Assembly: GCA_018652265.1 (NCBI GenBank)
Contig: JABICL010000030.1
Span: 6,818-70,817, forward strand
Origin: Candidatus Peribacteria bacterium
Lineage (GTDB): Bacteria; Patescibacteriota; Gracilibacteria; Peribacterales; Peribacteraceae
Reading direction: 5' to 3'
Length of the DNA: 64,000 nt
Shown here: one piece after another, positions 3,783-45,928 of the stretch
Layout of the letters: each line of letters opens with the position of its first letter
Position numbering within the stretch: position 1 is the stretch's first letter
The notes under the pieces: model-generated
Database searches by the model: none
The model's input: the letters and a program-made list of their open reading frames with translations, nothing else
What the model was told of the DNA's origin: nothing
Program-made: the position numbers and the translations under genes

Positions 3783-4214
3783 ATGAAAAAATTTAAAACA
3801 CTAGAAGCGGCAAAATCTATCACAAAAATATTCTCACTACTACTTGGAATAAGCCTAGCTCCAACAAAAGCAATTGCTGTATCTCTATCGGATATAGGAA
3901 ATACGAATGCCGGAATAGCAGCTATGTGGACTGGAATTATGACCTACATGGCTCATCCTGGAGATCCAGATGGAATAGGAACAATTACTGGCATAGTTAT
4001 CGGTACAGTATTATTGATGATAGGCTCTGCTGCAGTTGCAGTGATTCTATATGCATCTATCAAGCTGATCACATCTGGAGGCAACGATGAAACTGTAAGA
4101 AAAGCATGGAAAGAGATGATTTTTTATGCAGTTTTGGGGCTTCTGTTTGCCATTCTTTCAGAGACCATAATGAACTATGTAATATCTTTGGTGAGCACAA
4201 TTTCTGCGAGCTAA
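3783..4214 (+). CDS. Small membrane protein with TrbC/VirB2-type topology, paralog 3
   Basis: 143 aa: signal peptide, helix-loop(TSGGNDETVRKAWKE)-helix; 2 nt after previous stop. Confidence 0.55.
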   Translation: MKKFKTLEAAKSITKIFSLLLGISLAPTKAIAVSLSDIGNTNAGIAAMWTGIMTYMAHPGDPDGIGTITGIVIGTVLLMIGSAAVAVILYASIKLITSGGNDETVRKAWKEMIFYAVLGLLFAILSETIMNYVISLVSTISAS

Positions 4215-4220
4215 AAAGAT

Positions 4221-4310
4221 ATGCTTCGACACGCACTTCGCCTCACAGAACTTAAGCGTCGCTGCGCTCTGCTTCAAGTTCAGCTCGCTCAGCGCGGCTC
4301 AGCATGACAT
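4221..4310 (-). repeat. Repeat family A, copy 1 (inverted orientation)
   Basis: 90 bp; reverse complement differs from copy 2 (5811-5900) at about 3 positions; begins/ends ATGTCATGCTGAGC...GTGTCGAAGCAT with internal stem GAACTTGAAGC/GCTTAAGTTC. Confidence 0.9.
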
Positions 4311-4328
4311 ATATGGTACAATTTCAAC

Positions 4329-5822
4329 ATGTTCTCAGTAAAAAAAGATGACCCATTTATAGTATTCAAGAAGCTACAGGACATCGCACGGAAAGAAGTA
4401 GGAGATGAAAACGTAATAGATCTTTCTCGTGGTGATCCTGGATTTGGATTTACACCATCTATACGAGGAAGAGAATTTGCAAGTTATGTATTACTTCTAG
4501 ATACAAGATTGAATCTAGATTCAGATAATAGATTCGCAACCAGAAAAGATGCAAAAGACTCAGATAGTATTTTGAAAAACATTAGAGATATAACTCTAGA
4601 AATTTACAAAAATGAAATAGGAGAAAAATTTCTTTCGGATCTTGATGAATTCATAGAATTTTCTATATTAGCTGCTAGAGAAGAAGGTAAAAATTGGGGG
4701 AAAGAAGATGTTCTGTGGGAATTATTTTCATATGCCGCTATGAGCGGAGGTTCATATTTAAATCCTCGCGGACAAGAACTTACTAGAATAATCACAGCTG
4801 CGTGGCATAGATCTGAGCTTGAAACAAATATATCTAGTAGAGACATAATACTTACAAACGGCGCAAGTCACGCAATAGGAACAATTTTTAAGGCGCTTGG
4901 AGAAGAGGGTAATGGATATTTAAAAAGAGGAGACAGTGTTGCAATTGCTTCCCCTGTGTATTCGCCTTATAACAGGATAATAGAAGAACGTGGACTTATA
5001 CCTATTCCCTACACTATGGATCCACTAACTGGAGAATTATCAAATCTTCAAGTAGACAAGAAGCCAAAAGCAATAATTCTGATAGATCCAAACAATCCAA
5101 CTGGATTCTCCCTTTCACAAGAATCTCTAAATGCACTTGCAAAATTTGCAAAGGATTCTAATTCTTTAATCATTACAGATGAAGTTTATTATTCTTTCTT
5201 TCCTCACAAAGAAACAATGATAAAAGTAGCTCCAGAAAGAACAATCTGCATAAATGCCAGATCAAAAACAGAAAGAAGCACAGGTCTTCGCTCTGGAGAA
5301 ATAATAATAACAAAAGCAGGACGTGAAAATATCGCACAAATGATAGGACTGTCTGATGCAGCATCTCTAGAGCAATTACTAATGTTCTCTAAGGCACCAG
5401 GCAGAACAGGTGGCCAATTCCAGCACACCACATTTGTGCCTGGCCCATCACAACTGCTTGGAATATCACATATAGCTCTAGGACGAGAAGAGCGTGAAGA
5501 ATATATGAAGAATCTTCAAAACAATCGTGATACTTTTTGCAAGAGCCTAAATCTTCCACACAAAAATAATACTTATTACATAATCTTTGATCTGGATTCA
5601 ATTGATGGATGTACGACTAAAGATTTACCAATCGAAGATAAGCTAATACTTCTTGCAAAAGCAGGAGTTGTTTTTATTCCTGCTTATAGATTTTTCGCAG
5701 AAGAAGATAGAGATAAACCAGGAGTACTCACATCTGTACGCGCTTCCATAGTAAACACTACACCTGACAAACTAAAAGAGGCCGGGGAAAGGGTTAAGAA
5801 AGTTTTGTGCATGTCATGCTGA
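4329..5822 (+). CDS. PLP-dependent aminotransferase, class I/II (long-armed, possibly aspartate 4-decarboxylase-like)
   Basis: 497 aa; LIDPNNPTG and SKTERSTGLRSG (PLP-Lys region) signatures; TACAAT 6 nt upstream of ATG; last codons MSC-stop come from repeat A copy 2. Confidence 0.85.
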   Translation: MFSVKKDDPFIVFKKLQDIARKEVGDENVIDLSRGDPGFGFTPSIRGREFASYVLLLDTRLNLDSDNRFATRKDAKDSDSILKNIRDITLEIYKNEIGEKFLSDLDEFIEFSILAAREEGKNWGKEDVLWELFSYAAMSGGSYLNPRGQELTRIITAAWHRSELETNISSRDIILTNGASHAIGTIFKALGEEGNGYLKRGDSVAIASPVYSPYNRIIEERGLIPIPYTMDPLTGELSNLQVDKKPKAIILIDPNNPTGFSLSQESLNALAKFAKDSNSLIITDEVYYSFFPHKETMIKVAPERTICINARSKTERSTGLRSGEIIITKAGRENIAQMIGLSDAASLEQLLMFSKAPGRTGGQFQHTTFVPGPSQLLGISHIALGREEREEYMKNLQNNRDTFCKSLNLPHKNNTYYIIFDLDSIDGCTTKDLPIEDKLILLAKAGVVFIPAYRFFAEEDRDKPGVLTSVRASIVNTTPDKLKEAGERVKKVLCMSC

Positions 5823-5900
5823 GCCGCACTGAGCGAGCTGAACTTGAAGCAGAGCGCAGCGACGCTTAAGTTCTGCGAGTCGAAGTGCGTGTCGAAGCAT
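5811..5900 (+). repeat. Repeat family A, copy 2
   Basis: 90 bp, supplies the stop codon of the aminotransferase; lies between convergent aminotransferase and frr. Confidence 0.9.
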
Positions 5901-5907
5901 GTTTCAA

Positions 5908-6450
5908 TCAAACCTGCATAATATCCTCCTCCTTTGACTTAGAAATTTCCTCTAATTCTTTATTTGCTTTATCTACTTCTTTTTGAAGAGCAGTTTCAAA
6001 ATCCCTGTGCTCATCTTCACTTCTACTTTCGTCTCTTTTCGAATTAGAATGAAATTCCTGACGCTGTTGTCTTACAGAAATCCTAGCTTCTTCTGCTAAT
6101 TCTTTAACTATCTTTACTATTTGCAAGCGCCTTTCTTCTGTCATTGGAGGCAAATTCAACCTAATTACAACACCATCATTAACAGGATTTACTCCTATGT
6201 TTGCATCACGAATAGCAGATTCTATCTGCTGCATTACGCCCTTATCCCATGGCTGTATAACTATAGTACGAGCATCCTGGATGCTAATACCTGCAACACC
6301 TTTTAGGGGCTGCTTTTGACCATATGCATCAATCATAATACCTTCTACTAAAGAAGCAGATGCTCTACCTGTCTGAAGCTTTGCATATTCCATCTTTAAA
6401 TGTTCTGTGGTTTTCTGCATGCCTTTCTTAAAAAGATTTATATCACTCAT
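5908..6450 (-). CDS. frr: Ribosome recycling factor
   Basis: 180 aa, full-length RRF-like sequence (..VNPVNDGVVIRLNLPPMTEERR..); TAAAAT 6 nt upstream of ATG. Confidence 0.95.
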   Translation of the reverse strand: MSDINLFKKGMQKTTEHLKMEYAKLQTGRASASLVEGIMIDAYGQKQPLKGVAGISIQDARTIVIQPWDKGVMQQIESAIRDANIGVNPVNDGVVIRLNLPPMTEERRLQIVKIVKELAEEARISVRQQRQEFHSNSKRDESRSEDEHRDFETALQKEVDKANKELEEISKSKEEDIMQV

Positions 6451-12782: not shown

Positions 12783-14819
12783 GTGGGACTTGCAAACGAG
12801 ATAACAATCCGGCACTTAAAAACAACCGATACTTACATCGAGGCTCTAAATGAAATTGGAATAAGAAAAATAGAAGATCTGATTCTATATCTACCACGTG
12901 CGTATGAAGACCTTTCTCAAATGCAAAAACTTGCAACTGCGCAAGAAGGAGACAAAGTAACTATCAGAGGAACCGTAAGTAATTTAAAACTTGTAAGAAC
13001 AAGGACCGGAAAGAAATTGGTACAAGCAGATTTCACAGATACAGATGGAACTGTGTGCAAAGTAGTTTGGTTTAATCAGCCACATATAAAGAGAATGCTA
13101 TCAGATGGAGAAGACATCGTACTCACTGGAAAATTGGTTCGAACAGGTAAAAAATTCACATTACAAAGCCCTGTATTTGAATCAGGTAATCGTGAAATGC
13201 TTCTTCATTCTGGTCGTATAGTTCCTGTATATCCACAGCATGATGTAATAACTACTAGATGGCTGAGGGAGAAAATGGCACTTGTTAAAAATGTTATAAG
13301 TGATCTGCCGGAAACGTTACCAGAAGAGTTGATAAGTGGTCAGTGGTTAGTGGCTAGTGGTCAGTCGAAGGATCAGAATGAGGAAAGTAAGAAGCTTATG
13401 CCAAGAAATGAAGCAATAATGCAGCTGCACTTTCCTGAATCTGGTGAACTTTTGAAACAAGCACAAGACAGAATATCTTTTGAAGAGCTTTTTAATCTGC
13501 AACTAATTGCGCTTAAAAGAAAACAAGAATGGCAAGCAGAATCTCAGGATAGAATAAAAATTCCTATGAACGTAGAACTTATAAAATCATTTTTTGCTTC
13601 TCTTAAATTTACTCCTACAGATAGCCAAAGAATTGCAATCTATGAAATATTGAAAGATCTAGAAAAGCCAGTGCCTATGTCTAGGCTTCTGGAAGGAGAC
13701 GTAGGATCAGGTAAAACACTAGTTGCAACTGCAGTTATCGCAAATGTGCTCTATTACAACGGACAATGTGCTCTTATGGTTCCTACAGAAGTTCTCGCCA
13801 AGCAGCACGCTGCAAATATAACTAAACTTCTAAATAAAACATGTGTTGCTCTTCTTACTGGGTCTACCCCGAAGAAGGAGGCACAGGAAATAAAACTAGG
13901 CCTTGCTCGTGGGACTATAGACGTAGTTATAGGTACGCATTCACTTATACAGCCAGATGTGAAATTTAAGGATCTTAGATTCGCAGTAGTAGATGAACAG
14001 CATAGATTCGGTGTAGAGCAGAGAAATAAATTAAAAGCCAATGGCTCTCCACATTTCCTATCTATGACTGCTACTCCTATTCCTCGAACGCTAGCTCTCA
14101 CTGCATACGGAGATCATGATCTATCTGTACTGCTCGAAAAGCCTGGAAACAGAAAGTCTATTAAAACAAAAGTAGTTTCACCGAAAGATCGTCGCACAGT
14201 AGAATTATTTATAGATAAAGAAATAGAAGATGGCCGGCAGGCATATGTAATCTGCCCACTTATTACAGAAAGTGATGAACTCGCAGAAGTAAGAAATGTA
14301 ACTTCAGAAGCAAAAAGATTAAAAGAAATATTTCCACGTCGAAATATTGCACTACTTCACGGAAAGCTTACTCCAAAAGAGAAAGATGAAATCATGGGAG
14401 AATTCAAAGAGAAGAAATCAAACATTCTAGTTTCTACCTCTGTAATAGAAGTAGGAATAGATGTTCCAAATGCATCTATAATTCTTATAGAAGGATCTGA
14501 ACGCTTTGGCCTTTCCCAACTTCATCAATTACGTGGTCGTGTAGGACGAGGAGATCATCAGAGTCATTGTTTTTTGTGTACTACAGACGTCGCACAAGCA
14601 AGCTCACAGAGACTGAAGGCTATGGAAAAATTCACTGATGGGTTCTATTTGGCGGAAGTAGATCTAAAGCTAAGAGGTCCTGGCGAGTTGTATGGAACCC
14701 GCCAGAGCGGCATGCCGGAGATTCGAGCCTCCTCACTCACTAATCCTGAGCTGGTTGTAAGAGCGAGGAGGGCGGCGGAATTGTTTCTTGATAAGAAAGA
14801 GGCTCTAATAATCAATTAA
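12783..14819 (+). CDS. recG: ATP-dependent DNA helicase RecG
   Basis: Wedge domain plus SF2 helicase: GDVGSGKT, VVDEQHRFG, ..QLRGRVGRG; start set to GTG 12783 (TATTAT 7 nt upstream) instead of ORF-track 12735, which overlaps the divergent gene. Confidence 0.9.
   Translation: MGLANEITIRHLKTTDTYIEALNEIGIRKIEDLILYLPRAYEDLSQMQKLATAQEGDKVTIRGTVSNLKLVRTRTGKKLVQADFTDTDGTVCKVVWFNQPHIKRMLSDGEDIVLTGKLVRTGKKFTLQSPVFESGNREMLLHSGRIVPVYPQHDVITTRWLREKMALVKNVISDLPETLPEELISGQWLVASGQSKDQNEESKKLMPRNEAIMQLHFPESGELLKQAQDRISFEELFNLQLIALKRKQEWQAESQDRIKIPMNVELIKSFFASLKFTPTDSQRIAIYEILKDLEKPVPMSRLLEGDVGSGKTLVATAVIANVLYYNGQCALMVPTEVLAKQHAANITKLLNKTCVALLTGSTPKKEAQEIKLGLARGTIDVVIGTHSLIQPDVKFKDLRFAVVDEQHRFGVEQRNKLKANGSPHFLSMTATPIPRTLALTAYGDHDLSVLLEKPGNRKSIKTKVVSPKDRRTVELFIDKEIEDGRQAYVICPLITESDELAEVRNVTSEAKRLKEIFPRRNIALLHGKLTPKEKDEIMGEFKEKKSNILVSTSVIEVGIDVPNASIILIEGSERFGLSQLHQLRGRVGRGDHQSHCFLCTTDVAQASSQRLKAMEKFTDGFYLAEVDLKLRGPGELYGTRQSGMPEIRASSLTNPELVVRARRAAELFLDKKEALIIN
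13335..13369 (+). repeat. Heptad block AGTGGNN x4 (+1) in-frame inside recG
   Basis: agtggtc agtggtt agtggct agtggtc agtcgaa encoding SGQWLVASGQS. Confidence 0.85.
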
Positions 14820-15148
14820 ACTGATCCTTTACGACAGCCACTATATACATAAGGCTCAGTTCCCTTTTTAAAAATTGGCACCATATGTGAATCTTCTGGT
14901 GGCGTCCCCATTGCATCTACTACCTGCTCTCTTGAGACATCTAATACATCCGCAAGATTATCCACATATGCAGGGTTTATCCTTTCTGTTCTACCCATTG
15001 CTCTTGCAGGAGTAGTTTCTCCATTTTTAGTAAACTGTCTCTTGGGAATCTCTTGAGACTCTGGAAGAATTCTATGTATTGGCATAGGGTAATTTGGGTA
15101 AAAAATAAGAAATAAAATAAATAAAAATAAGAAATCATAAAACCTCAT
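14816..15148 (-). CDS. Hypothetical protein with N-terminal membrane anchor (110 aa)
   Basis: ORF; start overlaps upstream stop by 4 nt (operon with 15145..15561). Confidence 0.5.
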   Translation of the reverse strand: MRFYDFLFLFILFLIFYPNYPMPIHRILPESQEIPKRQFTKNGETTPARAMGRTERINPAYVDNLADVLDVSREQVVDAMGTPPEDSHMVPIFKKGTEPYVYSGCRKGSV

Positions 15149-15561
15149 GTTTGTGAGGAGGGATATTCAACTTGTGAAACACTTAAAGCACAATCTAAAT
15201 CTCGACAAACTTCTCTAGTCGGCCATCCTATTGCTGAGAAAATCTTATTTGCAGCATCCCCTTCTCCAAGGACTCTAAGCCTAGAAGCAGTACTATGTAG
15301 AAGGCTTGGTAAAGCACTTATAGATATTGGCTCTTTATCTTTTCCAGCACCACGTCGTGCTATTTTAAGCAAATTAATTAGATCGAACGCATCCTGACGA
15401 ACTCTGGCCCATAATTTAATTACAGAATTAAACTGAGGCTGAAAACTAATTGTTCCAATGCCTAGATTGCCATTATTCGGAATATCTCTCCCATACACAT
15501 CATTCACTAAGCCTTGTAACTCAGATGATATTTTTAGCCTATCTGGTAATGCTGTACTCAT
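15145..15561 (-). CDS. Hypothetical protein (138 aa)
   Basis: ORF; preceded 20 nt upstream by an intrinsic terminator and a leader mini-ORF. Confidence 0.55.
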   Translation of the reverse strand: MSTALPDRLKISSELQGLVNDVYGRDIPNNGNLGIGTISFQPQFNSVIKLWARVRQDAFDLINLLKIARRGAGKDKEPISISALPSLLHSTASRLRVLGEGDAANKIFSAIGWPTREVCRDLDCALSVSQVEYPSSQT

Positions 15562-15574
15562 AATTTACATATAA

Positions 15575-15601
15575 ATAAAAAACCCTCGCTTCGTGCGAGG
15601 G
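15575..15601 (-). terminator. Intrinsic terminator inside the leader of 15145..15561
   Basis: Minus sense CCCTCGC-acgaa-GCGAGGG followed by TTTTTTATTT. Confidence 0.75.
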
Positions 15602-15626
15602 ATTTAGTTTCAGGTTGTAGAAGTGT

Positions 15627-15698
15627 TTACGACATAACCTGCCCTCGCGATAAGCGCATCATCATCATTTGCATCATCATTAGGGATTGGCTGGTCAT
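15627..15698 (-). CDS. Leaderless mini-ORF MTSQSLMMMQMMMMRLSRGQVMS (candidate leader peptide)
   Basis: TTGACA (15729-15734) -17 nt- GATACT (15706-15711) -7 nt- ATG; 9 Met in 23 codons; ORF contains GCGAGGG that can pair with the 5-prime arm of the terminator. Confidence 0.5.
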   Translation of the reverse strand: MTSQSLMMMQMMMMRLSRGQVMS

Positions 15699-15730
15699 TG
15701 CGTGCAGTATCTGACTACTTAGAATGTTTG

Positions 15731-16219
15731 TCAAGAGATGGAGCTAAATTCTGTCTTATGCATTAGAGACCCATATATCGCAAGTCCTAGGGCATCTGCG
15801 GCATCATCTGATGTGCATTTTTCACCCAACGTAATTTCTATCATATCCTGCATTTGCTTCTTATCTGCATGCCCATCACCAGTAACTGTGGACTTAAGCT
15901 CAAGTGGAGCTGGTTCGATTATTGGAATTCCTGCACTTTCTAAACTCACAATAATCACTCCCCTAGCCTGCGCTACATCTATAGCAGTTTTTCTATTTAC
16001 CTCGAAATAAAGTTTTTCAACCACTGCAAGATCTGGTTTGTATTTTTTTATAACTTCACAAAGATCACTTTGTATTTCTAATAGACGACTTGGCAAACTT
16101 AAACCTTTTTTAGTTTCGATAGTAAACCAATCTATTAATTCATATTCACCAGGATTATCTGAATCAATAATTCCTATTCCTACAGTAGCAAGGCCAGGGT
16201 CGATACCTAATACTCTCAT
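15731..16219 (-). CDS. ruvC: Holliday junction resolvase RuvC
   Basis: MRVLGIDPGLATVG.. RNase H-fold resolvase N-terminus; start set to ATG 16219 (TATCAT 7 nt upstream). Confidence 0.92.
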   Translation of the reverse strand: MRVLGIDPGLATVGIGIIDSDNPGEYELIDWFTIETKKGLSLPSRLLEIQSDLCEVIKKYKPDLAVVEKLYFEVNRKTAIDVAQARGVIIVSLESAGIPIIEPAPLELKSTVTGDGHADKKQMQDMIEITLGEKCTSDDAADALGLAIYGSLMHKTEFSSIS

Positions 16220-16257
16220 TGGCACAATGATAGCCTAAATAATGTTGATACAAACCA

Positions 16258-16390
16258 AAAATTTTCAATTCATAATTTTCAATTTTCATTCAATTTTCAA
16301 GATCTAATTCTCAATTTTGCAGAATTCGCATGTTTGAAAATTGGCTCATTGATCCTTGAATGAAAATTAGAAATTTAAAATTGTAAATTA
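16258..16390. repeat. AATTTTC-type heptad block and inverted GAAAATT block in the ruvC / transferase intergenic region
   Basis: aattttc aattcat aattttc aattttc attcaat tttcaag (16258-16318) faced by ttgaaaatt ... tgaaaatta gaaattt aaaattg (16334-16390). Confidence 0.7.
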
Positions 16391-16447
16391 TCTCTAATAA
16401 CCACAAATCCACATATTTGTAATCCAGCTATCAGCTACAATACCCCC

Positions 16448-17506
16448 ATGTCTGAAGCTCTGACATTTCTACTTTATTCAACAACAATCTGCCTCCTGCT
16501 TCACATGCTCGCATGTGCAGTATTTCCAAATTTCAAACTACTAGATAAGCCAGAAAAATATGGACTCAAAAGAAAGCCTCTTCCATATCCAACGGGCATA
16601 GCATCCGTAATTGCATTTATTTTGATGTTCACCGTTGCTCAGACTCCCCTATCTTTTCAAGCAAAAGGACTATTGCTAGGAATTGGTCTACTCACATTCA
16701 CTTCGATAATAGATGATATAAAAAGTCTTCCAGCCTGGGCAAGGCTACTTATTCAAGCACTAATCGCATTTATAATATTTGCAGCAGGCACTCGCATTTA
16801 TACAATCACAAATCCACTTGGAGGAATAATAAAACTAGATACTATAGACATTCATCCAGCACTACTCACTACTCACTACTCACTACTCACTAAGATAGGA
16901 CCTCTTCCATTCGCAAGTGGTCTTTTCACAATAGCTTGGCTTCTTCTCACTACTAATTCGTTCAACTGGCTAGATGGCATACCAGGACAAGTAAGCATTC
17001 TCTCTTTTATAGGAGGAATAACACTTGGAATACTTGCGCTAAGCTCTAGAGTAGATCAACCAGAGATTGCTATAATTTCTTTTATAGTCGCAGGAATCGC
17101 ACTTGGTAGTGCTGTTTTCGATCTACCTCCAAACAAAACTGTAATGGGAGATACTGGAGCAATGTTTTTTGGACTCATGCTTGGAACAATAAGTATTTAT
17201 GCAGGAGGAAAAGTAGCAACTGCTTTGCTTGTAATGGGAGTGCCACTTATCGATGCAGCACTAGTAACAACTAAAAGGATTATAAAAGGTAGATCTCCAC
17301 TAAAAGGAGGAAGAGATCATCTTCATCATATGCTTATAGACAATAGGCAATGGACTGAATCTCAAGTAATACTTCTTACAGCAGCACTTGGAACTTCATT
17401 TGGAGTTTCTGCATTATTTATGAGCACATTAGGAAAATTTGCCGCCATCGTATTACTTGGAATTGTAATGCTGCTTATCACTAGATATGCATCTAAGAAA
17501 AACTAA
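16448..17506 (+). CDS. Polyprenyl-phosphate HexNAc-1-phosphate transferase (MraY/WecA family)
   Basis: 352 aa, about 10 TM; NWLDGIPGQ and MGDTGAMFFG motifs; TACAAT 6 nt upstream of ATG. Confidence 0.85.
   Translation: MSEALTFLLYSTTICLLLHMLACAVFPNFKLLDKPEKYGLKRKPLPYPTGIASVIAFILMFTVAQTPLSFQAKGLLLGIGLLTFTSIIDDIKSLPAWARLLIQALIAFIIFAAGTRIYTITNPLGGIIKLDTIDIHPALLTTHYSLLTKIGPLPFASGLFTIAWLLLTTNSFNWLDGIPGQVSILSFIGGITLGILALSSRVDQPEIAIISFIVAGIALGSAVFDLPPNKTVMGDTGAMFFGLMLGTISIYAGGKVATALLVMGVPLIDAALVTTKRIIKGRSPLKGGRDHLHHMLIDNRQWTESQVILLTAALGTSFGVSALFMSTLGKFAAIVLLGIVMLLITRYASKKN
16860..16894 (+). repeat. Perfect heptad tract (CACTACT)x4 + cactaag inside the transferase gene
   Basis: Read directly; encodes LLTTHYSLLTK. 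Confidence 0.95.
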
Positions 17507-19140
17507 CCTCCTTCCTCTTTCGAATCAGACCTAGCAGACAATATCCTCATATTTGTCATAGGTTCGCCATCTGCAGTAAAGGCTCCTCTTACAGCAGGAA
17601 TCACTGTCTTTATGCCACGTGGAATCATTCTTATAAATGCACGTCCTCTACTATCAAATTGCTCCTGAGTAATTACAGAAGGAGAGAAATCCGCTTCGCC
17701 AAATGAAGCCTGCAAATGAATTTCTCCTTCAAATTTTACATTCTTTATAAAGTTTCCATCTTCATCTCTTGCATAAAGAACTATCTCTTCCCAATCTTTA
17801 TCGAAATCACCATCGTGAAGAATCGTAATACTAGAAACAACGTGTGAAACCTTTGGCATTTGCATATCGGTTTCGGCAGTAGAGCGTGATTCTGCAATTT
17901 CTGATTCATCTTCCCCTGCCCCGCGAAGTTCGTCCGCCACGGCGGACGACGAAGTGGGGTCTACAACTTCTATAACCTCCTTGTCTTCTATTGCCTCTTC
18001 CTCCGGCTCTATAAACAACTCCGAATCTACATTCGAATCCACCACCTCCACAACTTCGCTCACAATTACCTGCTCTTTATTACTTCTTCTTCTCGCAATT
18101 CTTGCGGCAACATTTTCGCGTAATTTTTCTATAAATGTCTTTCCAGAAAGAACTACAGAAGCAGTTATTTCTTCTGAAGATAACTCTTCTTGTTTTTCTG
18201 ATTTTACAATTGCCATACCATTCTCCATTCCCCAATCTCTATAATTTTCGATGTAAGCCAAAGGATTAATTGTATATTGCTCTGCCCTATCTTTTCCTAA
18301 TCCATTATCTACTGCCTCTATAAAACTAAGCCCTGCTTCAGTAGCTTCTGAAGTTGTAAATGGCCAATAGGGATGGAAAGGAGCCTCTCTATCTATCTGG
18401 AAATGTAGATGTGGTGCAGTTGCAAATCCAGTCTGTCCAGTAAGAGCAATTTGCTGTCCTTTTTGAACAATTTCACCAATGCTCACATACATTTTTCCTA
18501 AGTGAGCATAATTCGAATATAGAACTTCTGTCTTATCTGGATCATCTACGTTTGGAACACCTGGATGTTTTATAACCACGGTATTACCAAAACCATATCC
18601 TCTTTCTACAACTCTTGTTACTACTCCATTCATTACAGATACAACTGGAGTTCCTTTGGGAGTAAGAAGATCTGCAGCAGGATGACTACCACAATTAAGT
18701 CCACCAGAATCATAATCACCATTGTAATCAACAGATAAAATACTTCTATTGTGACCTGCATCATCTCCACATCCACGTGCAGGGAGATAAGAAGGAAGTG
18801 ATACAAGTAATTCTTCCGGAACATCTGTGAAATCAAAATTTCGATTTCCACCTCCCCATCTACCAGGATCAGGCACTACAGGAAGTGGTGACACCGCTCC
18901 AGTAAATACTATTTCTGCCTCTTGTCCCCAAACAGATTTCCAGAATGCTCCCCATCCATGCTGTCCAACCATGTTTCCTACCAGAAATGCAGCACAGGAA
19001 AAAAGGGCCAACCAAAAAGACCATCTCTTGCTAAGGAATCCCTTCATAGACTCCGTAGGTTGCCTGTATAGTGCAGAAACTGAATAGTGATGAGCGTCAA
19101 ACATTTTTGTTTTTGTTACTATATAATATACCATAATCAT
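17503..19140 (-). CDS. M23 (LytM-type) metallopeptidase with N-terminal anchor and long C-terminal extension
   Basis: GYGFGNTVVIKH ... YAHLG ... APHLHFQI motifs; start uncertain (M1, M13 or M32). Confidence 0.85.
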   Translation of the reverse strand: MIMVYYIVTKTKMFDAHHYSVSALYRQPTESMKGFLSKRWSFWLALFSCAAFLVGNMVGQHGWGAFWKSVWGQEAEIVFTGAVSPLPVVPDPGRWGGGNRNFDFTDVPEELLVSLPSYLPARGCGDDAGHNRSILSVDYNGDYDSGGLNCGSHPAADLLTPKGTPVVSVMNGVVTRVVERGYGFGNTVVIKHPGVPNVDDPDKTEVLYSNYAHLGKMYVSIGEIVQKGQQIALTGQTGFATAPHLHFQIDREAPFHPYWPFTTSEATEAGLSFIEAVDNGLGKDRAEQYTINPLAYIENYRDWGMENGMAIVKSEKQEELSSEEITASVVLSGKTFIEKLRENVAARIARRRSNKEQVIVSEVVEVVDSNVDSELFIEPEEEAIEDKEVIEVVDPTSSSAVADELRGAGEDESEIAESRSTAETDMQMPKVSHVVSSITILHDGDFDKDWEEIVLYARDEDGNFIKNVKFEGEIHLQASFGEADFSPSVITQEQFDSRGRAFIRMIPRGIKTVIPAVRGAFTADGEPMTNMRILSARSDSKEEGG

Positions 19141-20230
19141 GCAATTTGGTCAATCACCAGAAATCGTAAATTTGGCTTCTACAAGCGAAATGGAGACGAT
19201 TTGCATCGGAAAATCGCTCGCAAGCAGCATCTATCAAAATAACACCACAATGTGGCTGTATGGGGACCTAGGAGCTGGGAAAACCACCTTCGTAAAGGGT
19301 CTTGCAGAAGGCTTAGGCATTTCTGATCCAATCACTAGTCCAACCTATGCCTTGGAGAATAGATATGGTTCGACAAGCTCACCAGAGCCTAATAATAAAT
19401 TACTACACGCAGACCTATATAGGCTTAGCTCGTCTGATGCTAAAAAATTCGTAGAAGAAACTGAAGAGTTTCCTGGCGTTAGAGTTGTGGAGTGGAGTGA
19501 AAGACTTTCCTCGTCCGAGCTCTCCTCGACCGAGCGCCAAAGCGCGAGTGGAGAGACAACCTCTCGATTCGTCCTTCGACAAGCTCAGGACTCACTCGAG
19601 GAAAGCACGATGAATAGCAAATCAATACATATAGAATTTGAAGAAATCTCTGAAACAAAACGTAATATAAAAATTACCTTCAACGATGCAAAAATCCCCT
19701 CTCGCAAGCAAATAGAAGAATGGAGAGATGATGTGAAACTTCCAGAGCATATCTGCGCTCACAGTGATGCTGTAGGAAAATTTGCTGAAGAACTTGGGCT
19801 TAAGCTTCTAAAAAAAGGAATAGTAAATCGTCCCCTACTTCTTAAGGCCGCCGGAGAAGCACATGATTTACTTAGATTTGTAGATATAGATTCATCAGAT
19901 AAAGAAGATGTTTGGAAAAAATTGGGAGAAAAATATCCCGGTCGCCACGAAGAAGCATGTGCTAATTTTCTAGAAGATGAAGGCTACAGCGAACTCTCAT
20001 CTGTCATCCGTCCACATAGCCTTCTATCACTTGATGATCCAAATGCATTCTCTACTGTGGAACAAAAAATTCTTTTCTATGCAGACAAAAGAGTACTTGG
20101 AGAAAAAGTTGTTAGCTTAGACGAAAGATTCGATGACTTTATTGTTCGTTACGGAAAAGGAGTGGAATCCGAGGATGCTAAGAGGTGGAGGAAGATTACG
20201 AAGGAGATGGAGAAGGAATTTATTTTCTAA
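19139..20230 (+). CDS. tsaE: TsaE (t6A ATPase) fused to an HD-domain phosphohydrolase
   Basis: GDLGAGKTTFVKGL P-loop, VVEWSE; C-terminal H..HD pattern (HSDAVG, EAHDLLRF); repeat C copy 1 sits in-frame in the TsaE part. Confidence 0.8.
   Translation: MQFGQSPEIVNLASTSEMETICIGKSLASSIYQNNTTMWLYGDLGAGKTTFVKGLAEGLGISDPITSPTYALENRYGSTSSPEPNNKLLHADLYRLSSSDAKKFVEETEEFPGVRVVEWSERLSSSELSSTERQSASGETTSRFVLRQAQDSLEESTMNSKSIHIEFEEISETKRNIKITFNDAKIPSRKQIEEWRDDVKLPEHICAHSDAVGKFAEELGLKLLKKGIVNRPLLLKAAGEAHDLLRFVDIDSSDKEDVWKKLGEKYPGRHEEACANFLEDEGYSELSSVIRPHSLLSLDDPNAFSTVEQKILFYADKRVLGEKVVSLDERFDDFIVRYGKGVESEDAKRWRKITKEMEKEFIF
19505..19605 (+). repeat. Repeat family C, copy 1 (in-frame in tsaE)
   Basis: 101 bp with perfect 9-bp terminal inverted repeat CTTTCCTCG/CGAGGAAAG; modules GCTCTCCTCGACCGAG, CGAGTGGAGAG, GTCCTTCGACAAGCTCAGGA; encodes LSSSELSSTERQSASGETTSRFVLRQAQDSLEES. 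Confidence 0.9.
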
Positions 20231-20552
20231 CATATCTAAGAGTATTCCCTCTTCTTAAATATATAAGAGATAAACTGTCTTCTGTAAGTTCTGAAATCGA
20301 GTATTTGAAATCCTCGTCATCCCCAGACACAATCAAGTATATCTCGTTCACAAAACTTTCGACCACAAAAGGTGCAGAGGAAATTAATTCCTCATCATAG
20401 ATATCTTTTTTCACATCACCCTCGAAAACTATCTTGCTACTGCTATCATCAGTGGAAATCCATTCTCCTTGAATGAGGTCAGATAAATTTTGATTGTCTG
20501 ATGTACAACCGATTGCCAATAAACAAAATATTAATATAAAAATTCTCTTCAT
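20220..20552 (-). CDS. Small lipoprotein
   Basis: 110 aa; lipobox LLAIGC at residues 11-16. Confidence 0.6.
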   Translation of the reverse strand: MKRIFILIFCLLAIGCTSDNQNLSDLIQGEWISTDDSSSKIVFEGDVKKDIYDEELISSAPFVVESFVNEIYLIVSGDDEDFKYSISELTEDSLSLIYLRRGNTLRYVRK

Positions 20553-43898: not shown

Positions 43899-44909
43899 TC
43901 AATCATCCCCTTCCACACTTATAGGATCCTGGAAGTTGTTATCTGCTTCCTGAACAGTTCTAGGACGAGGACGGAAACCACTCTTGAGCTTAAGCTGTAA
44001 AACAGCATTCGTGTTCTTTATAGACTTTCTGTAGGAAGTATTAACTCCTCTCCTGAGAAGAGCATTGCCAGTTTGCCTGGAAATTCTAGATGATGATCTA
44101 GATAAAGATTTATTTCTCTGATAATTACGATATTCCACTAGATATTCACATCTTTCTGTCCATGAACTTCTAGGAACTTTCGCACAGTTATTATTTTCCA
44201 CATATCTCCTTATCCTTGCCTCTTCGGATCTACTAAGAGAATCTGATCCTGGACCGTCTTCATCAAATTCTTCTACATCGACTCCAGCACTTTCAGAATA
44301 AGAGCTATCACCTGTAGTTTCAAAACGGCTCGTATCTATAGGGGCAACTCTTCTACTGCTTACCCTTCTATTTACAGCCCTAGTTCTGCGCCCAATTCTT
44401 CTTCTTGCCAAAGCCTCTTTTGTTTTGGAATCTTTTTCTCTAAGCAAATAAATACATCTTTCATATTCTGCTGTCTCGAGGCCATCACTTTCACAATTAT
44501 CATTTCTTACATAACCCTTTATACGACTCTCTCTGTTATTGTCTAACTCTTCAGACCCAGGACCATCTGGATTGAAAACTGTGCTACCTGTTTGAACTGC
44601 TACTGTTTTATTAGGTAATTTTAATCGTTCACTCGTTGTTCTACGTCTTAATTGCATTCTCCTATCTCTTCTGGAAAGATTTTGACATTGCCTTTCCCAA
44701 TCTAAATATTCATACCTTACTTCTTGTTCATCAGACAAATTTCTAGGAATAGATCCACTATTTAGGTATCTCTTAAATCTAGCCTCAGTGTGAGTGTCTA
44801 ATGCATCTGATCCAGATGGTGCAACATCGCAATTAACTTCTGCTGCATTTACCTGAACAGTTCCAATAAAAATAAAGGTTATTATAAAAAGTGTTTTTAC
44901 ATTTCTCAT
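43899..44909 (-). CDS. Secreted Arg-rich protein built from three about 100-aa repeats
   Basis: Signal peptide; repeats each with PGS(D/E).L....E(A/S)R(I/F)(K/R).Y(V/L).N..C...ERC.YL; TAGAAT 7 nt upstream of ATG. Confidence 0.6.
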   Translation of the reverse strand: MRNVKTLFIITFIFIGTVQVNAAEVNCDVAPSGSDALDTHTEARFKRYLNSGSIPRNLSDEQEVRYEYLDWERQCQNLSRRDRRMQLRRRTTSERLKLPNKTVAVQTGSTVFNPDGPGSEELDNNRESRIKGYVRNDNCESDGLETAEYERCIYLLREKDSKTKEALARRRIGRRTRAVNRRVSSRRVAPIDTSRFETTGDSSYSESAGVDVEEFDEDGPGSDSLSRSEEARIRRYVENNNCAKVPRSSWTERCEYLVEYRNYQRNKSLSRSSSRISRQTGNALLRRGVNTSYRKSIKNTNAVLQLKLKSGFRPRPRTVQEADNNFQDPISVEGDD

Positions 44910-44968: not shown

Positions 44969-45928
44969 CTAGCGCAATCCAACTGACTTTCTTACTCTAT
45001 CCATAGTCTTTTCTGCAATTTTCCTAGCTTTTGCAGCGCCATTCTTTACAACTTCTTTTGCAGACTCATCCGAAATTTCCAATCTCTTCTTTCTCATATC
45101 ACCAAAATAATTGAAAAATTCTTCTGCTAACATTTTCTTAGCATCACCATATCCAAGTCCCCCAGCACGATACTTATCTTCCAATTCTTTCTTACCATCA
45201 TCATCCAAAAACAAAGAATGTATTTTGAATACATTGCAGTTTTCTGGATCTTTTGGCTCTTCTACTCCTTTTGAATCCGTAACTATTCCCATAATTATTT
45301 TTTCTGTCTTCTTGTCATCTGCAAAAAGTGGAATCGTATTTCCATAACTCTTACTCATTTTTCTGCCATCCGTACCTGGAACTACTGCAACATCTTCTCG
45401 TATCTGAACATCTGGCTCTTTTAGAACTCCATCTCCATATGCATTATTAAATTTCTGAGCTATATCACGAGTCATCTCTATATGTTGCTTCTGATCTTTT
45501 CCTACAGGAATCAAATCCGAGTCATATAACAAGATATCCGCAGCCTGCAAAACAGGATAAGCAAAGAGGCCATGATTTGGCTCTAAGCCTTGTGCAAGCT
45601 TATCTTTGTAACTCACTGCTCTTTCAAGTAACCCCATAGGAGTAATACAAGAAAGAATCCATAAGAGCTCTGCATGCTCTGGAACATCTGATTGAAAAAA
45701 CAGAATTCCTTTCTCTGGATCAAAACCACAAGCAAGAAGATCTTTTACTAGATTCATTCTGTATTCCCTTAATTCATTTGCATCACGAACAGAAGTAAGA
45801 GCATGTAAATCTACCACTATATAAATATTCTCTTCTTCTCCCATTAATTCTATATTTGGCTTTATAGAACCAAAATAATTTCCGATATGTGGATCGCCTG
45901 ATGGCTGCATTCCTGATAGTACTCGCAT
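44969..45928 (-). CDS. trpS: Tryptophan--tRNA ligase
   Basis: PHIGNYFG (HIGH) and KMSKS motifs; TACAAT 6 nt upstream of ATG. Confidence 0.93.
   Translation of the reverse strand: MRVLSGMQPSGDPHIGNYFGSIKPNIELMGEEENIYIVVDLHALTSVRDANELREYRMNLVKDLLACGFDPEKGILFFQSDVPEHAELLWILSCITPMGLLERAVSYKDKLAQGLEPNHGLFAYPVLQAADILLYDSDLIPVGKDQKQHIEMTRDIAQKFNNAYGDGVLKEPDVQIREDVAVVPGTDGRKMSKSYGNTIPLFADDKKTEKIIMGIVTDSKGVEEPKDPENCNVFKIHSLFLDDDGKKELEDKYRAGGLGYGDAKKMLAEEFFNYFGDMRKKRLEISDESAKEVVKNGAAKARKIAEKTMDRVRKSVGLR

Follow-up and report, generated by a model that had tools for sequence, protein, structure and literature searches.

A Methionine-Rich Leader Element behind ruvC in a Candidatus Peribacteria Bacterium as a Probable Transcription Attenuator

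The Leader Element and Its Parts

The locus described here lies in a 64,000-nt stretch of DNA from a Candidatus Peribacteria bacterium (assembly GCA_018652265.1, contig JABICL010000030.1, positions 6,818 to 70,817 of the forward strand), which we refer to as the window. On its minus strand, a sigma-70-type promoter (15706-15734) that overlaps the end of ruvC is followed by a short methionine-rich open reading frame (ORF), an intrinsic terminator and two small genes of 138 and 110 amino acids (aa). On comparative and folding evidence, we consider it probable that this element is a Met-responsive leader-peptide transcription attenuator. The promoter consists of TTGACA (15734-15729), a 17-nt spacer and GATACT (15711-15706); it agrees with the consensus at 10 of 12 positions and is the top sigma-70 match in a promoter scan of the 5.5 kb from 13000 to 18500. 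Only 7 nt separate the −10 box GATACT from the ATG (15698) of the leader ORF MTSQSLMMMQMMMMRLSRGQVMS, which comprises 23 codons and a TAA stop codon (15627-15698, with the stop at 15629-15627) and is preceded by no Shine-Dalgarno sequence. Because the start codon is so close to the −10 box and a Shine-Dalgarno sequence is missing, the mRNA is predicted to be leaderless, its start site being placed by the promoter consensus. Nine of the 23 codons encode Met (P = 9e-10 given the Met frequency of 2.25% in the window), and most of these belong to the putative regulatory codons, three AUG, one CAA and four AUG (15657-15680, RNA nt 19-42). The promoter, its spacing and the nine-Met ORF had been described by the original prediction, which was made from the sequence alone, and are present where it had placed them. 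No other Met-run mini-ORF was found in the 64-kb window; a run of ATG triplets at 45204 was considered as a second element and rejected, as it lies inside a coding gene.

The leader RNA can be divided into four segments: CCCU and the AUG run (segment 1), GCGAGGG and CAGGUU (segment 2), AACCUG...CCCUCGC (segment 3), and GCGAGGG followed by six uridines (segment 4). The CCCU of segment 1 (15683-15686) pairs with AGGG of segment 2 in minimum free energy (MFE) folds and would thereby act as an anti-antiterminator. Segment 2 (15636-15648), the 5′ strand of the putative antiterminator, begins 8 nt past the last AUG of the Met run and is composed of GCGAGGG (15648-15642), a copy of the terminator 3′ arm within the ORF, and CAGGUU (15641-15636). 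Folds and the comparison of helices identify AACCUG (15611-15616) as the partner of CAGGUU in antiterminator helix 2. The intrinsic terminator (15577-15601) is built from CCCUCGC of segment 3 (15601-15595), an ACGAA loop, GCGAGGG of segment 4 (15589-15583) and U6 (15582-15577); its 7-bp stem with six G-C pairs closes a 5-nt loop, and the local hairpin energy amounts to −14.1 kcal/mol. The U run ends 15 nt before the ATG at 15561 with which the 138-aa ORF begins. Between the leader promoter and this ATG the promoter scan revealed no sigma-70-like site, and the original prediction had likewise seen no separate promoter for this gene.

Conservation of the Leader

The leader is under strong purifying selection in the species of the window and in its sister species L027: In nine further contigs of the same species, eight of which stem from samples other than that of L002, it is 100% identical over the 231 nt compared, and the ATG run is also identical in seven contigs of the sister species. 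Because it is identical across same-species contigs, the run is not length-polymorphic; its length is constant in 17 contigs of two species, so that the variation typical of a neutral microsatellite, which the original prediction had proposed to look for, is not seen there. By its RuvC relatives, the window belongs to Candidatus Peribacteria/Peregrinibacteria, a lineage of the candidate phyla radiation (CPR). L027 has a RuvC that is 92% identical to that of the window (BLASTP) and the same gene order of M23 peptidase, glycosyltransferase 4, ruvC, leader and recG. At 4-fold degenerate sites the two species agree in 75% of the positions in ruvC, in 60% in recG and in 60% in the glycosyltransferase gene, corresponding to 62% when pooled, whereas 147 of 158 leader positions (93%) are identical (P = about 1e-19 versus the pooled 4-fold sites). 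Only one change falls into the first 100 nt of the leader, which extend from the −35 box through segment 2, and this change from AGCC to AACC still allows pairing with GGUU. The remaining changes are clustered in the loop between the antiterminator strands, plus one replacement of a G-C by a G-U pair.

More distant relatives were gathered via RuvC homologues, a metagenome pattern scan and homologues of a downstream protein, which yielded a set of ten leaders that we designate type A (window, L027, L034, L102, L157, L156/L155, L160, L162a, L164a and L165). In all ten, TTGAC is invariant at the −35 position and is followed by a −10 box, and a start codon (ATG in seven, GTG in three) lies 7-9 nt past this box. 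The part of the ORF that precedes the run measures 18-54 nt (6-18 codons), always a multiple of 3, and contains no in-frame stop codon. The run itself has the common pattern MMMxMMM(M), in which x is Q, E, S or A, and is separated from GYGAGGG by 8 nt in all eight leaders with an intact run and by 11 nt in the two in which the last codon of the run is mutated, L162a and L164a. The stop codon succeeds GYGAGGG by 0-18 nt (12 nt in six of the ten), and 36-46 nt further on CCCUCGC constitutes the 5′ arm of a U-run terminator, which is present across the set and degenerate in L034 and L162a. Upstream of the run, CCCU(C) recurs in L157, L156, L160 and L102, in differing reading frames.

Since GYGAGGG and CCCU(C) stand in different frames among the members, they are conserved as RNA; the start codon, the frame and the position of the stop codon, in turn, are kept in the manner of a translated ORF. 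Both an RNA layer and an ORF layer are thus preserved, as an attenuator requires, while the C-terminal half of the leader peptide is not conserved. The idea of a leaderless Met-rich ORF with a terminator/antiterminator logic, with which the original prediction had started, therefore gains support from the geometry of the relatives, that is, from the in-frame run, the fixed spacing and the stop position; mini-ORF and complementary segments, whose conservation it had suggested to check, are kept in the ten type A leaders counting that of the window. The architecture persists in L034, L156 and L157, with RuvC identities of 66-69%, and in L165, where the cargo protein, a member of the family described below, aligns at ~33% identity.

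The searches also delimit the distribution of the element. A RuvC scan of GTDB genomes returned only relatives of at most 55% identity, in which recF converges on ruvC and no element is present; the same recF-ruvC arrangement without an element was found in L158/L159 and in the P0017 locus. The metagenome scan for ATGATGATGCARATGATGATG matched at least 120 stretches, nearly all of them Met-, Asp- or His-rich coding DNA, the only useful ones being L102, L108 and L096, which shares its contig with L027; L098, L078 and L089 were examined and rejected as leaders. L039, L035, L049, L064 and others are proteobacteria-like and encode proteins with Met-rich C-terminal tails (...RMDMMEMMMQMMMDRE...) that are unrelated to the leader. 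In L027 (4008-4085) and L157 (1953-2060), GC-rich inverted repeats separate the stop codon of ruvC from the leader promoter; such repeats are missing in the window.

Alternative Structures and Proposed Mechanism

In the unmasked state, the window RNA folds as 1:2 plus 3:4, and it is more stable than shuffled controls (z = −3.3). According to the original prediction, the GCGAGGG within the ORF can compete for the 5′ arm of the terminator, and the pairing of these two sequences indeed beats 2000 shuffles (p = 0.004); the corresponding duplex of segment 2 and the 5′ arm does so in seven of eight elements (p = 0.001-0.03). The earlier scheme had overlooked segment 1 with its pairing to segment 2 as well as the second antiterminator helix CAGGUU:AACCUG. 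A helix 2 is common to all ten leaders and occurs in different variants between species: CAGGUU:AACCUG, CAGGUUG:CAAUCUG (L027), CUGGC:GCCAG (L156), AGGCU:AGCCU (L160) and UGCUUG:CAAGCA, a variation with a combined p of 2e-4. The 1:2 pairing is clear in the MFE folds of the window, L027 and L157, and less so in L102, L156 and L034.

We imitated the ribosome by masking 28 nt during folding. For the full-length window RNA, the terminator forms with a probability of 0.84 when no ribosome is present, of 0.14 when one is stalled at the first Met codon and again of 0.84 when one has reached the stop codon; the corresponding values are 0.98, 0.00 and 1.00 for L027 and 0.73, 0.00 and 0.04 for L157, where with the ribosome at the stop codon a different fold takes the place of the terminator. 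In a co-transcriptional view, in which the RNA was cut just before segment 4, we determined the probability that the 5′ arm of the terminator is sequestered. In the window, this probability is about 1.0 with a ribosome stalled in the run, at any of Met 1-6, and 0.51 with a ribosome at the stop codon. It changes from 1.00 to 0.07 in L027, from 0.98 to 0.23 in L102, from 0.97 to 0.41 in L160 and from 0.74 to 0.29 in L033b. Terminator and antiterminator folds of the window therefore exchange with ribosome position, and they do so in the direction that had been postulated: A ribosome at the stop codon goes along with termination, and a stall in the Met run frees the competitor.

Taken together with the sequence elements found, with how they are conserved and with the alternative pairings and the energetics of these, this suggests the following course of events, of which the start of transcription, the reading of the ORF by ribosomes, their stalling and the control of the 138-aa ORF are inferred from the sequence. 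Transcription would start at the AUG or 1 nt earlier, and a 70S ribosome would load on the leaderless 5′ end and trail the polymerase, so that the position of the ribosome could report how much charged elongator tRNA-Met is available. With Met-tRNA in good supply, the ribosome would cross the tract of seven AUG codons and reach the stop codon 12 nt beyond GCGAGGG, where it would cover CAGGUU and part of GCGAGGG in segment 2. CCCUCGC of segment 3 could then pair with GCGAGGG of segment 4, the terminator would form and transcription would stop at ~15577. When Met-tRNA is scarce, the ribosome would stall within the AUG tract, thereby occupying segment 1 and leaving segment 2 exposed: Owing to the spacing of 8 nt, segment 2 would be positioned just past the leading edge of a ribosome with the last AUG in its A site. 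The exposed segment 2 would pair with AACCUG...CCCUCGC before segment 4 is made, no terminator would form and the polymerase would enter the downstream gene. Without translation, 1:2 pairing and terminator formation would be expected. The original prediction had proposed the sensing of methionine or of the initiator tRNA. Of this, the methionine part is retained, whereas initiator tRNA is not needed because internal AUG codons are read by elongator tRNA-Met.

The Gene Family behind the Leader in Relatives

In seven loci (L157, L160, L162, L164, L165, L102 and L033), the leader is found co-oriented with and directly upstream of genes for one protein family, which we refer to as the cargo. These loci differ in their neighbours and follow ruvC, recG, a SIMPL-domain gene or a glycosyltransferase gene. 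Traced from L157:2259-3539, the family comprises at least 66 representative clusters in an exhaustive profile search (P0122-P0192). It was previously unannotated and has an extra N-terminal region beside a fold of the SalL/fluorinase/DUF62 type. With respect to sequence, 20 of 56 members match the Pfam family SAM_HAT_C (best E 9.5e-6), none above the curated threshold, and a profile search of the PDB gave weak matches (E 0.13-0.89). An AlphaFold2 model computed from 56 sequences shows a two-domain fold at a pLDDT (predicted local distance difference test) of 87.8; an earlier model from six sequences (pLDDT 52) was discarded. In a Foldseek search with the retained model, the top 33 PDB matches are all SalL chlorinases, fluorinases or DUF62 hydrolases of S-adenosylmethionine (SAM), with a probability of 1.00, E values down to 1.5e-8 and target-normalised template modelling (TM) scores of 0.51-0.70.

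Enzymes of this fold, the SAM:nucleophile adenosyltransferases, are described in bioRxiv 10.1101/2025.08.29.672840 and PMC12120602 as attacking C5′ of SAM and thereby releasing L-methionine. Going by its fold, the cargo of the relatives may accordingly split SAM into adenosine and L-methionine; in that case, the ancestral circuit would respond to methionine starvation, through which the Met logic of the leader gains a physiological meaning. Met depletion of the cargo constitutes evidence that is independent of the RNA analysis: The family contains 130 internal Met in 26058 residues (0.50%) versus 2.15% in 120 RuvC homologues of like organisms, and 27 of 71 scanned sequences (the 66 search matches as well as P0122-P0125 and P0127) have none at all. 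In the 11 genes that lie directly after a leader, only 16 internal Met are found in 3593 residues (P = 1.6e-17). Such a depletion is to be expected if these proteins have to be synthesised at times of Met-tRNA shortage.

A further link to SAM is provided by L033 (RuvC 67% identical), where a SAM-I riboswitch (RF00162; 54.3 bits versus a threshold of 44.4) is located directly after ruvC, the position that the leader takes in the window, at 4048-4183 and precedes an 83-aa ORF (4240-4491) without internal Met or Pfam match. In L164, an S-adenosylhomocysteine hydrolase gene (5817-6200, minus strand) is located ~2 kb downstream of tandem leaders and a SAM_HAT-like gene, with the gene of an SLH-domain protein in between.

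Genes Downstream of the Leader in the Window

In the window, the place of the cargo is taken by the 138-aa ORF (15145-15561, minus strand), before whose ATG no Shine-Dalgarno sequence was seen. The original prediction had called this gene uncharacterized, and it proves to be an orphan: Searching 5.8 billion clustered proteins yielded no homologue beyond its own cluster, and neither Pfam nor NCBIfam gave a match. A comparison with the SAM_HAT-like cargo family was negative (hhalign probability 0.2-0.4%), and a six-frame hmmsearch found no SAM_HAT-like cargo gene anywhere in the 64-kb window. None of its 137 internal residues is Met, which alone corresponds to P = 0.05.

At the end of the 138-aa ORF, a second, degenerate copy of the terminator, CCTCA-caaaca-TGAGG followed by TTTT (15143-15158, minus strand), aligns with the single terminator of L027, so that the ORF sits between two terminator copies. 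L027 has no 138-aa ORF; there, the terminator is directly succeeded by a T-rich spacer and a 56-aa ORF. The ORF may thus either have been inserted in the window or have been deleted in L027 by repeat-mediated recombination. The second downstream ORF of the window (14816-15148, minus strand) encodes 110 aa, or 89 aa with the start at MPIHR that some gene callers choose, and its T-rich upstream spacer and first codons are homologous to those of the 56-aa ORF of L027. Among the small ORFs that follow the leader (89/110 aa in the window, 56 aa in L027, 83 aa in L033 and 65 aa in L034), BLASTP detected no mutual homology.

The most economical reading of these findings is that an ancestral sensor serving the gene of the SAM-cleaving enzyme has been retained and now gates a different, Met-free cargo in the window. 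Such a retained sensor fits the strong selection on the leader; a trans-acting short RNA or peptide fits it, too.

Two further ORFs of the window are Met-poor and without Pfam match, one at 20220-20552 (minus strand; 110 aa, no internal Met) and one at 43899-44909 (minus strand; 336 aa, one internal Met); no Met-run leader is found upstream of either. The intergenic region that separates the divergently oriented ruvC and glycosyltransferase-4 genes contains AATTTTC-type tandem repeats with periods of 7 and 11 at positions 16260-16318.

Other Leader Types

A second kind of leader, designated type B, encodes a peptide ...MM(M)xMCMRVPR... with alternating Met and Cys codons and occurs in L033 (4512-4660), L162 (2335-2480) and L164 (2300-2460), in the latter two in tandem behind a type A leader and before the same gene. 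Its antiterminator is palindromic, with GUCCCGCGGG pairing with CCCCGCGGGAC, and neither a promoter nor a Shine-Dalgarno sequence belonging to it is obvious. L108 (2300-2460, minus strand), which belongs to an AT-rich contig that is not Peribacteria-like, carries the mini-ORF MRNNTMMMQMMMMQSPRLGGHCCANRMC with a Shine-Dalgarno sequence and a 13-bp terminator of unrelated sequence. This ORF, too, contains a copy of the 3′ arm of its terminator, 9 nt in length, and is followed by the gene of a 460-aa protein with one internal Met and no Pfam match, so that L108 looks like the same design arisen independently. An origin of this contig from a phage was considered and dropped, as no meaningful phage match was obtained.

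Weighing of the Interpretations

Several observations weigh against an attenuator that responds to Met. Equilibrium folds fail to switch in L102 and L108, where the very strong terminator always wins, and they show no clean switch in L034, L156 and L033b, in which different folds prevail. Helix 1 was examined for strict covariation, and none was found: There are wobble-compatible changes only, because CCCUCGC of segment 3 is almost invariant. Three of the members start with GTG, a start codon that in E. coli is less effective in leaderless mRNAs. Conservation of the Met run at the level of the codons and at the level of the peptide is indistinguishable, because Met has a single codon. Finally, the window, L027 and L034 lack the SAM_HAT-like cargo and have short orphan ORFs behind the leader instead, and L027 keeps the leader without the 138-aa ORF, so that conservation of the leader cannot be credited to this gene. 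The target of the leader in this genome is therefore the weakest point of the attenuator interpretation.

It is this point that speaks for a self-contained small gene, whose short terminated RNA or Met-rich peptide would act in trans without controlling the 138-aa ORF and which, in an extreme form, would amount to a constitutive terminator. A precedent is given in bioRxiv 10.1101/606483 with the released trp attenuator RNA and peptide of Sinorhizobium. The strong terminator would be in line with this, as would the strong selection on the leader in the window species and L027 despite their differing downstream genes and the loss of the ancestral cargo. However, the conservation of segment 2, helix 2 and the stop position equals that of the promoter and the run, which would be unexplained if the terminator were never overridden; moreover, the promoter scan offers no other start for the 138-aa ORF, in seven other loci the leader invariably has the orientation of a member of one gene family and immediately precedes it, and the C-terminal half of the peptide is free to vary. 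We hence regard a small gene of this kind as unlikely. Somewhat less likely still is that the same RNA switch is triggered by nascent-peptide arrest of MMMxMMM with SAM or methionine, Met-tRNA shortage being uninvolved, in analogy to TnaC and tryptophan or to the plant CGS1 peptide and SAM. The Met run is indeed the sole conserved feature of the peptide, the single codon of Met makes its conservation compatible with selection on the peptide, and the riboswitch of L033 as well as the SAM-cleaving fold of the cargo establish a link to SAM. Yet variation is free at residue x and on either side of the run, whereas known arrest peptides, to our knowledge, need specific flanking residues; a nearly Met-free cargo would be expected if it is made under limiting Met-tRNA, and induction by high SAM or Met would hardly be meaningful for an enzyme that releases Met.

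Two further explanations remain. In one of them, the AUG repeats of an untranslated RNA are bound by a protein, a small RNA or a tRNA that chooses between terminator and antiterminator. This is compatible with the conservation of GYGAGGG, CCCU and helix 2 as RNA and with the missing Shine-Dalgarno sequence, but without translation there would be no need for a start codon at 7-9 nt past the −10 box in 10 of 10 leaders and in frame with the run over 18-54 nt, for the lack of in-frame stop codons or for a stop codon placed relative to segment 2; as no Rfam family matches either, we deem an untranslated RNA very improbable. In the other, a chance ORF has arisen in a neutral ATG microsatellite beside an ordinary ruvC terminator. 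ATG repeats can arise by slippage, and ATGATGATGCARATGATGATG is common in unrelated coding DNA; however, an identity of 93% where neutral sites reach 62% excludes both a neutral microsatellite and a chance ORF, the run does not vary in length in the 17 contigs, the architecture is kept in the distant relatives L034, L156, L157 and L165, and the element has its own promoter, by which this explanation is refuted. A Met-responsive attenuator consequently remains the interpretation that we favour.

Comparison with Known Systems

Leader-peptide attenuation is textbook knowledge, but methionine represents a notable gap in it, as the control by this amino acid is attributed to SAM riboswitches, to T-boxes and to repressor proteins. 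Rfam is not known to contain a leader family for Met, and gene regulation in CPR bacteria is almost unknown. At the gathering threshold, Rfam gave no match in the leader region of the window, and at E up to 10 (15100-16500) the best match was NsiR1 with 17.5 bits versus a threshold of 39, which covers the terminator only. On 12 related loci, Rfam detected only the SAM-I riboswitch of L033 and nothing for the leader element. Signal recognition particle (SRP) RNA, 6S RNA and SAM riboswitches were considered by eye for the window element and dropped. Full-text searches of the literature brought up no attenuator with a run of Met codons and, for CPR bacteria, no comparable element at all. The SAM-I riboswitch (RF00162) and the Met T-box resemble the window element in being cis leaders that couple Met/SAM status to a terminator; they differ from it in sensing a ligand or tRNA by RNA binding instead of by ribosome position, and no match in sequence or structure to either of them was found with Rfam.

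One of the two closest reports concerns the polycysteine leaderless small ORFs (sORFs) of mycobacteria, which are cysteine-responsive and act on translation rather than on termination (bioRxiv 10.1101/834739). The window element resembles them in its tract of one sulfur amino acid and, as predicted, in a leaderless 5′-AUG or GUG and a control of downstream genes by pausing; its competing structure, however, is a U-run intrinsic terminator, so that control would be at the level of transcription, and it carries Met instead of Cys. For several polycysteine loci under one signal, the authors use the term ‘ribulon’ (bioRxiv 10.1101/834739). By extension, and as a tentative proposal that we hold to be somewhat less than an even bet, Peribacteria and at least one unrelated AT-rich bacterium may run a Met ‘ribulon’, in which AUG-run leaders sense Met-tRNA and starvation induces Met-purged proteins, chiefly a divergent SAM-cleaving enzyme that regenerates L-methionine. 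If this were true, SAM would serve as a methionine reserve, or as a host-derived resource, for auxotrophic symbionts, and the window would hold a copy of the sensor that has been re-used for a new Met-free orphan gene. The cargo family with its at least 66 clusters gains a proposed physiological role in the response to methionine starvation and would illustrate to an extreme degree how a protein family can be depleted of the very amino acid whose shortage induces it. The locus further provides a testable example of amino-acid sensing in an uncultivated bacterium with a reduced genome, and the combination of an AUG run, 8 nt and a copy of the terminator 3′ arm provides a search signature for more regulons.

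The other close report, and the sole mention of a Met leader that the literature searches brought up, comes from Streptomyces lividans TK24, where a leaderless ‘metL’ upstream of metNIQ, annotated by RNA-seq, has been proposed as a Met-dependent attenuator (PMC8079986). As is predicted for the leaders described here, it is a leaderless short ORF with Met codons; it precedes a methionine-related gene, and its C-terminus CMCRRMC is reminiscent of the Met/Cys alternation of the type B leaders in L033, L162 and L164. However, three of its 29 codons are Met and form no run, and a typical Rho-independent terminator is reported to be missing (PMC8079986), whereas the window element has 7-8 Met in its tract, a clear terminator and a conserved antiterminator; for ‘metL’ there is no comparative analysis.

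In mechanism, the likeness is to the classical attenuators trpL, hisL, leuL, thrL, pheL and ilvL: Each of them has a short ORF with a run of codons for one amino acid, four segments with 1:2, 2:3 and 3:4 pairings, an intrinsic terminator before the structural gene, and a stop codon placed so that the terminating ribosome blocks segment 2. The window leader departs from them in that it would sense Met, is predicted to be leaderless without a Shine-Dalgarno sequence and resides in a CPR host. Moreover, the cargo of its relatives is a single Met-free protein with a SAM-cleaving fold and not a biosynthetic operon, and that of the window is an orphan. The proposed mechanism is thus that of classical ribosome-mediated attenuation of the trp/his type, with methionine as the amino acid that would be sensed.

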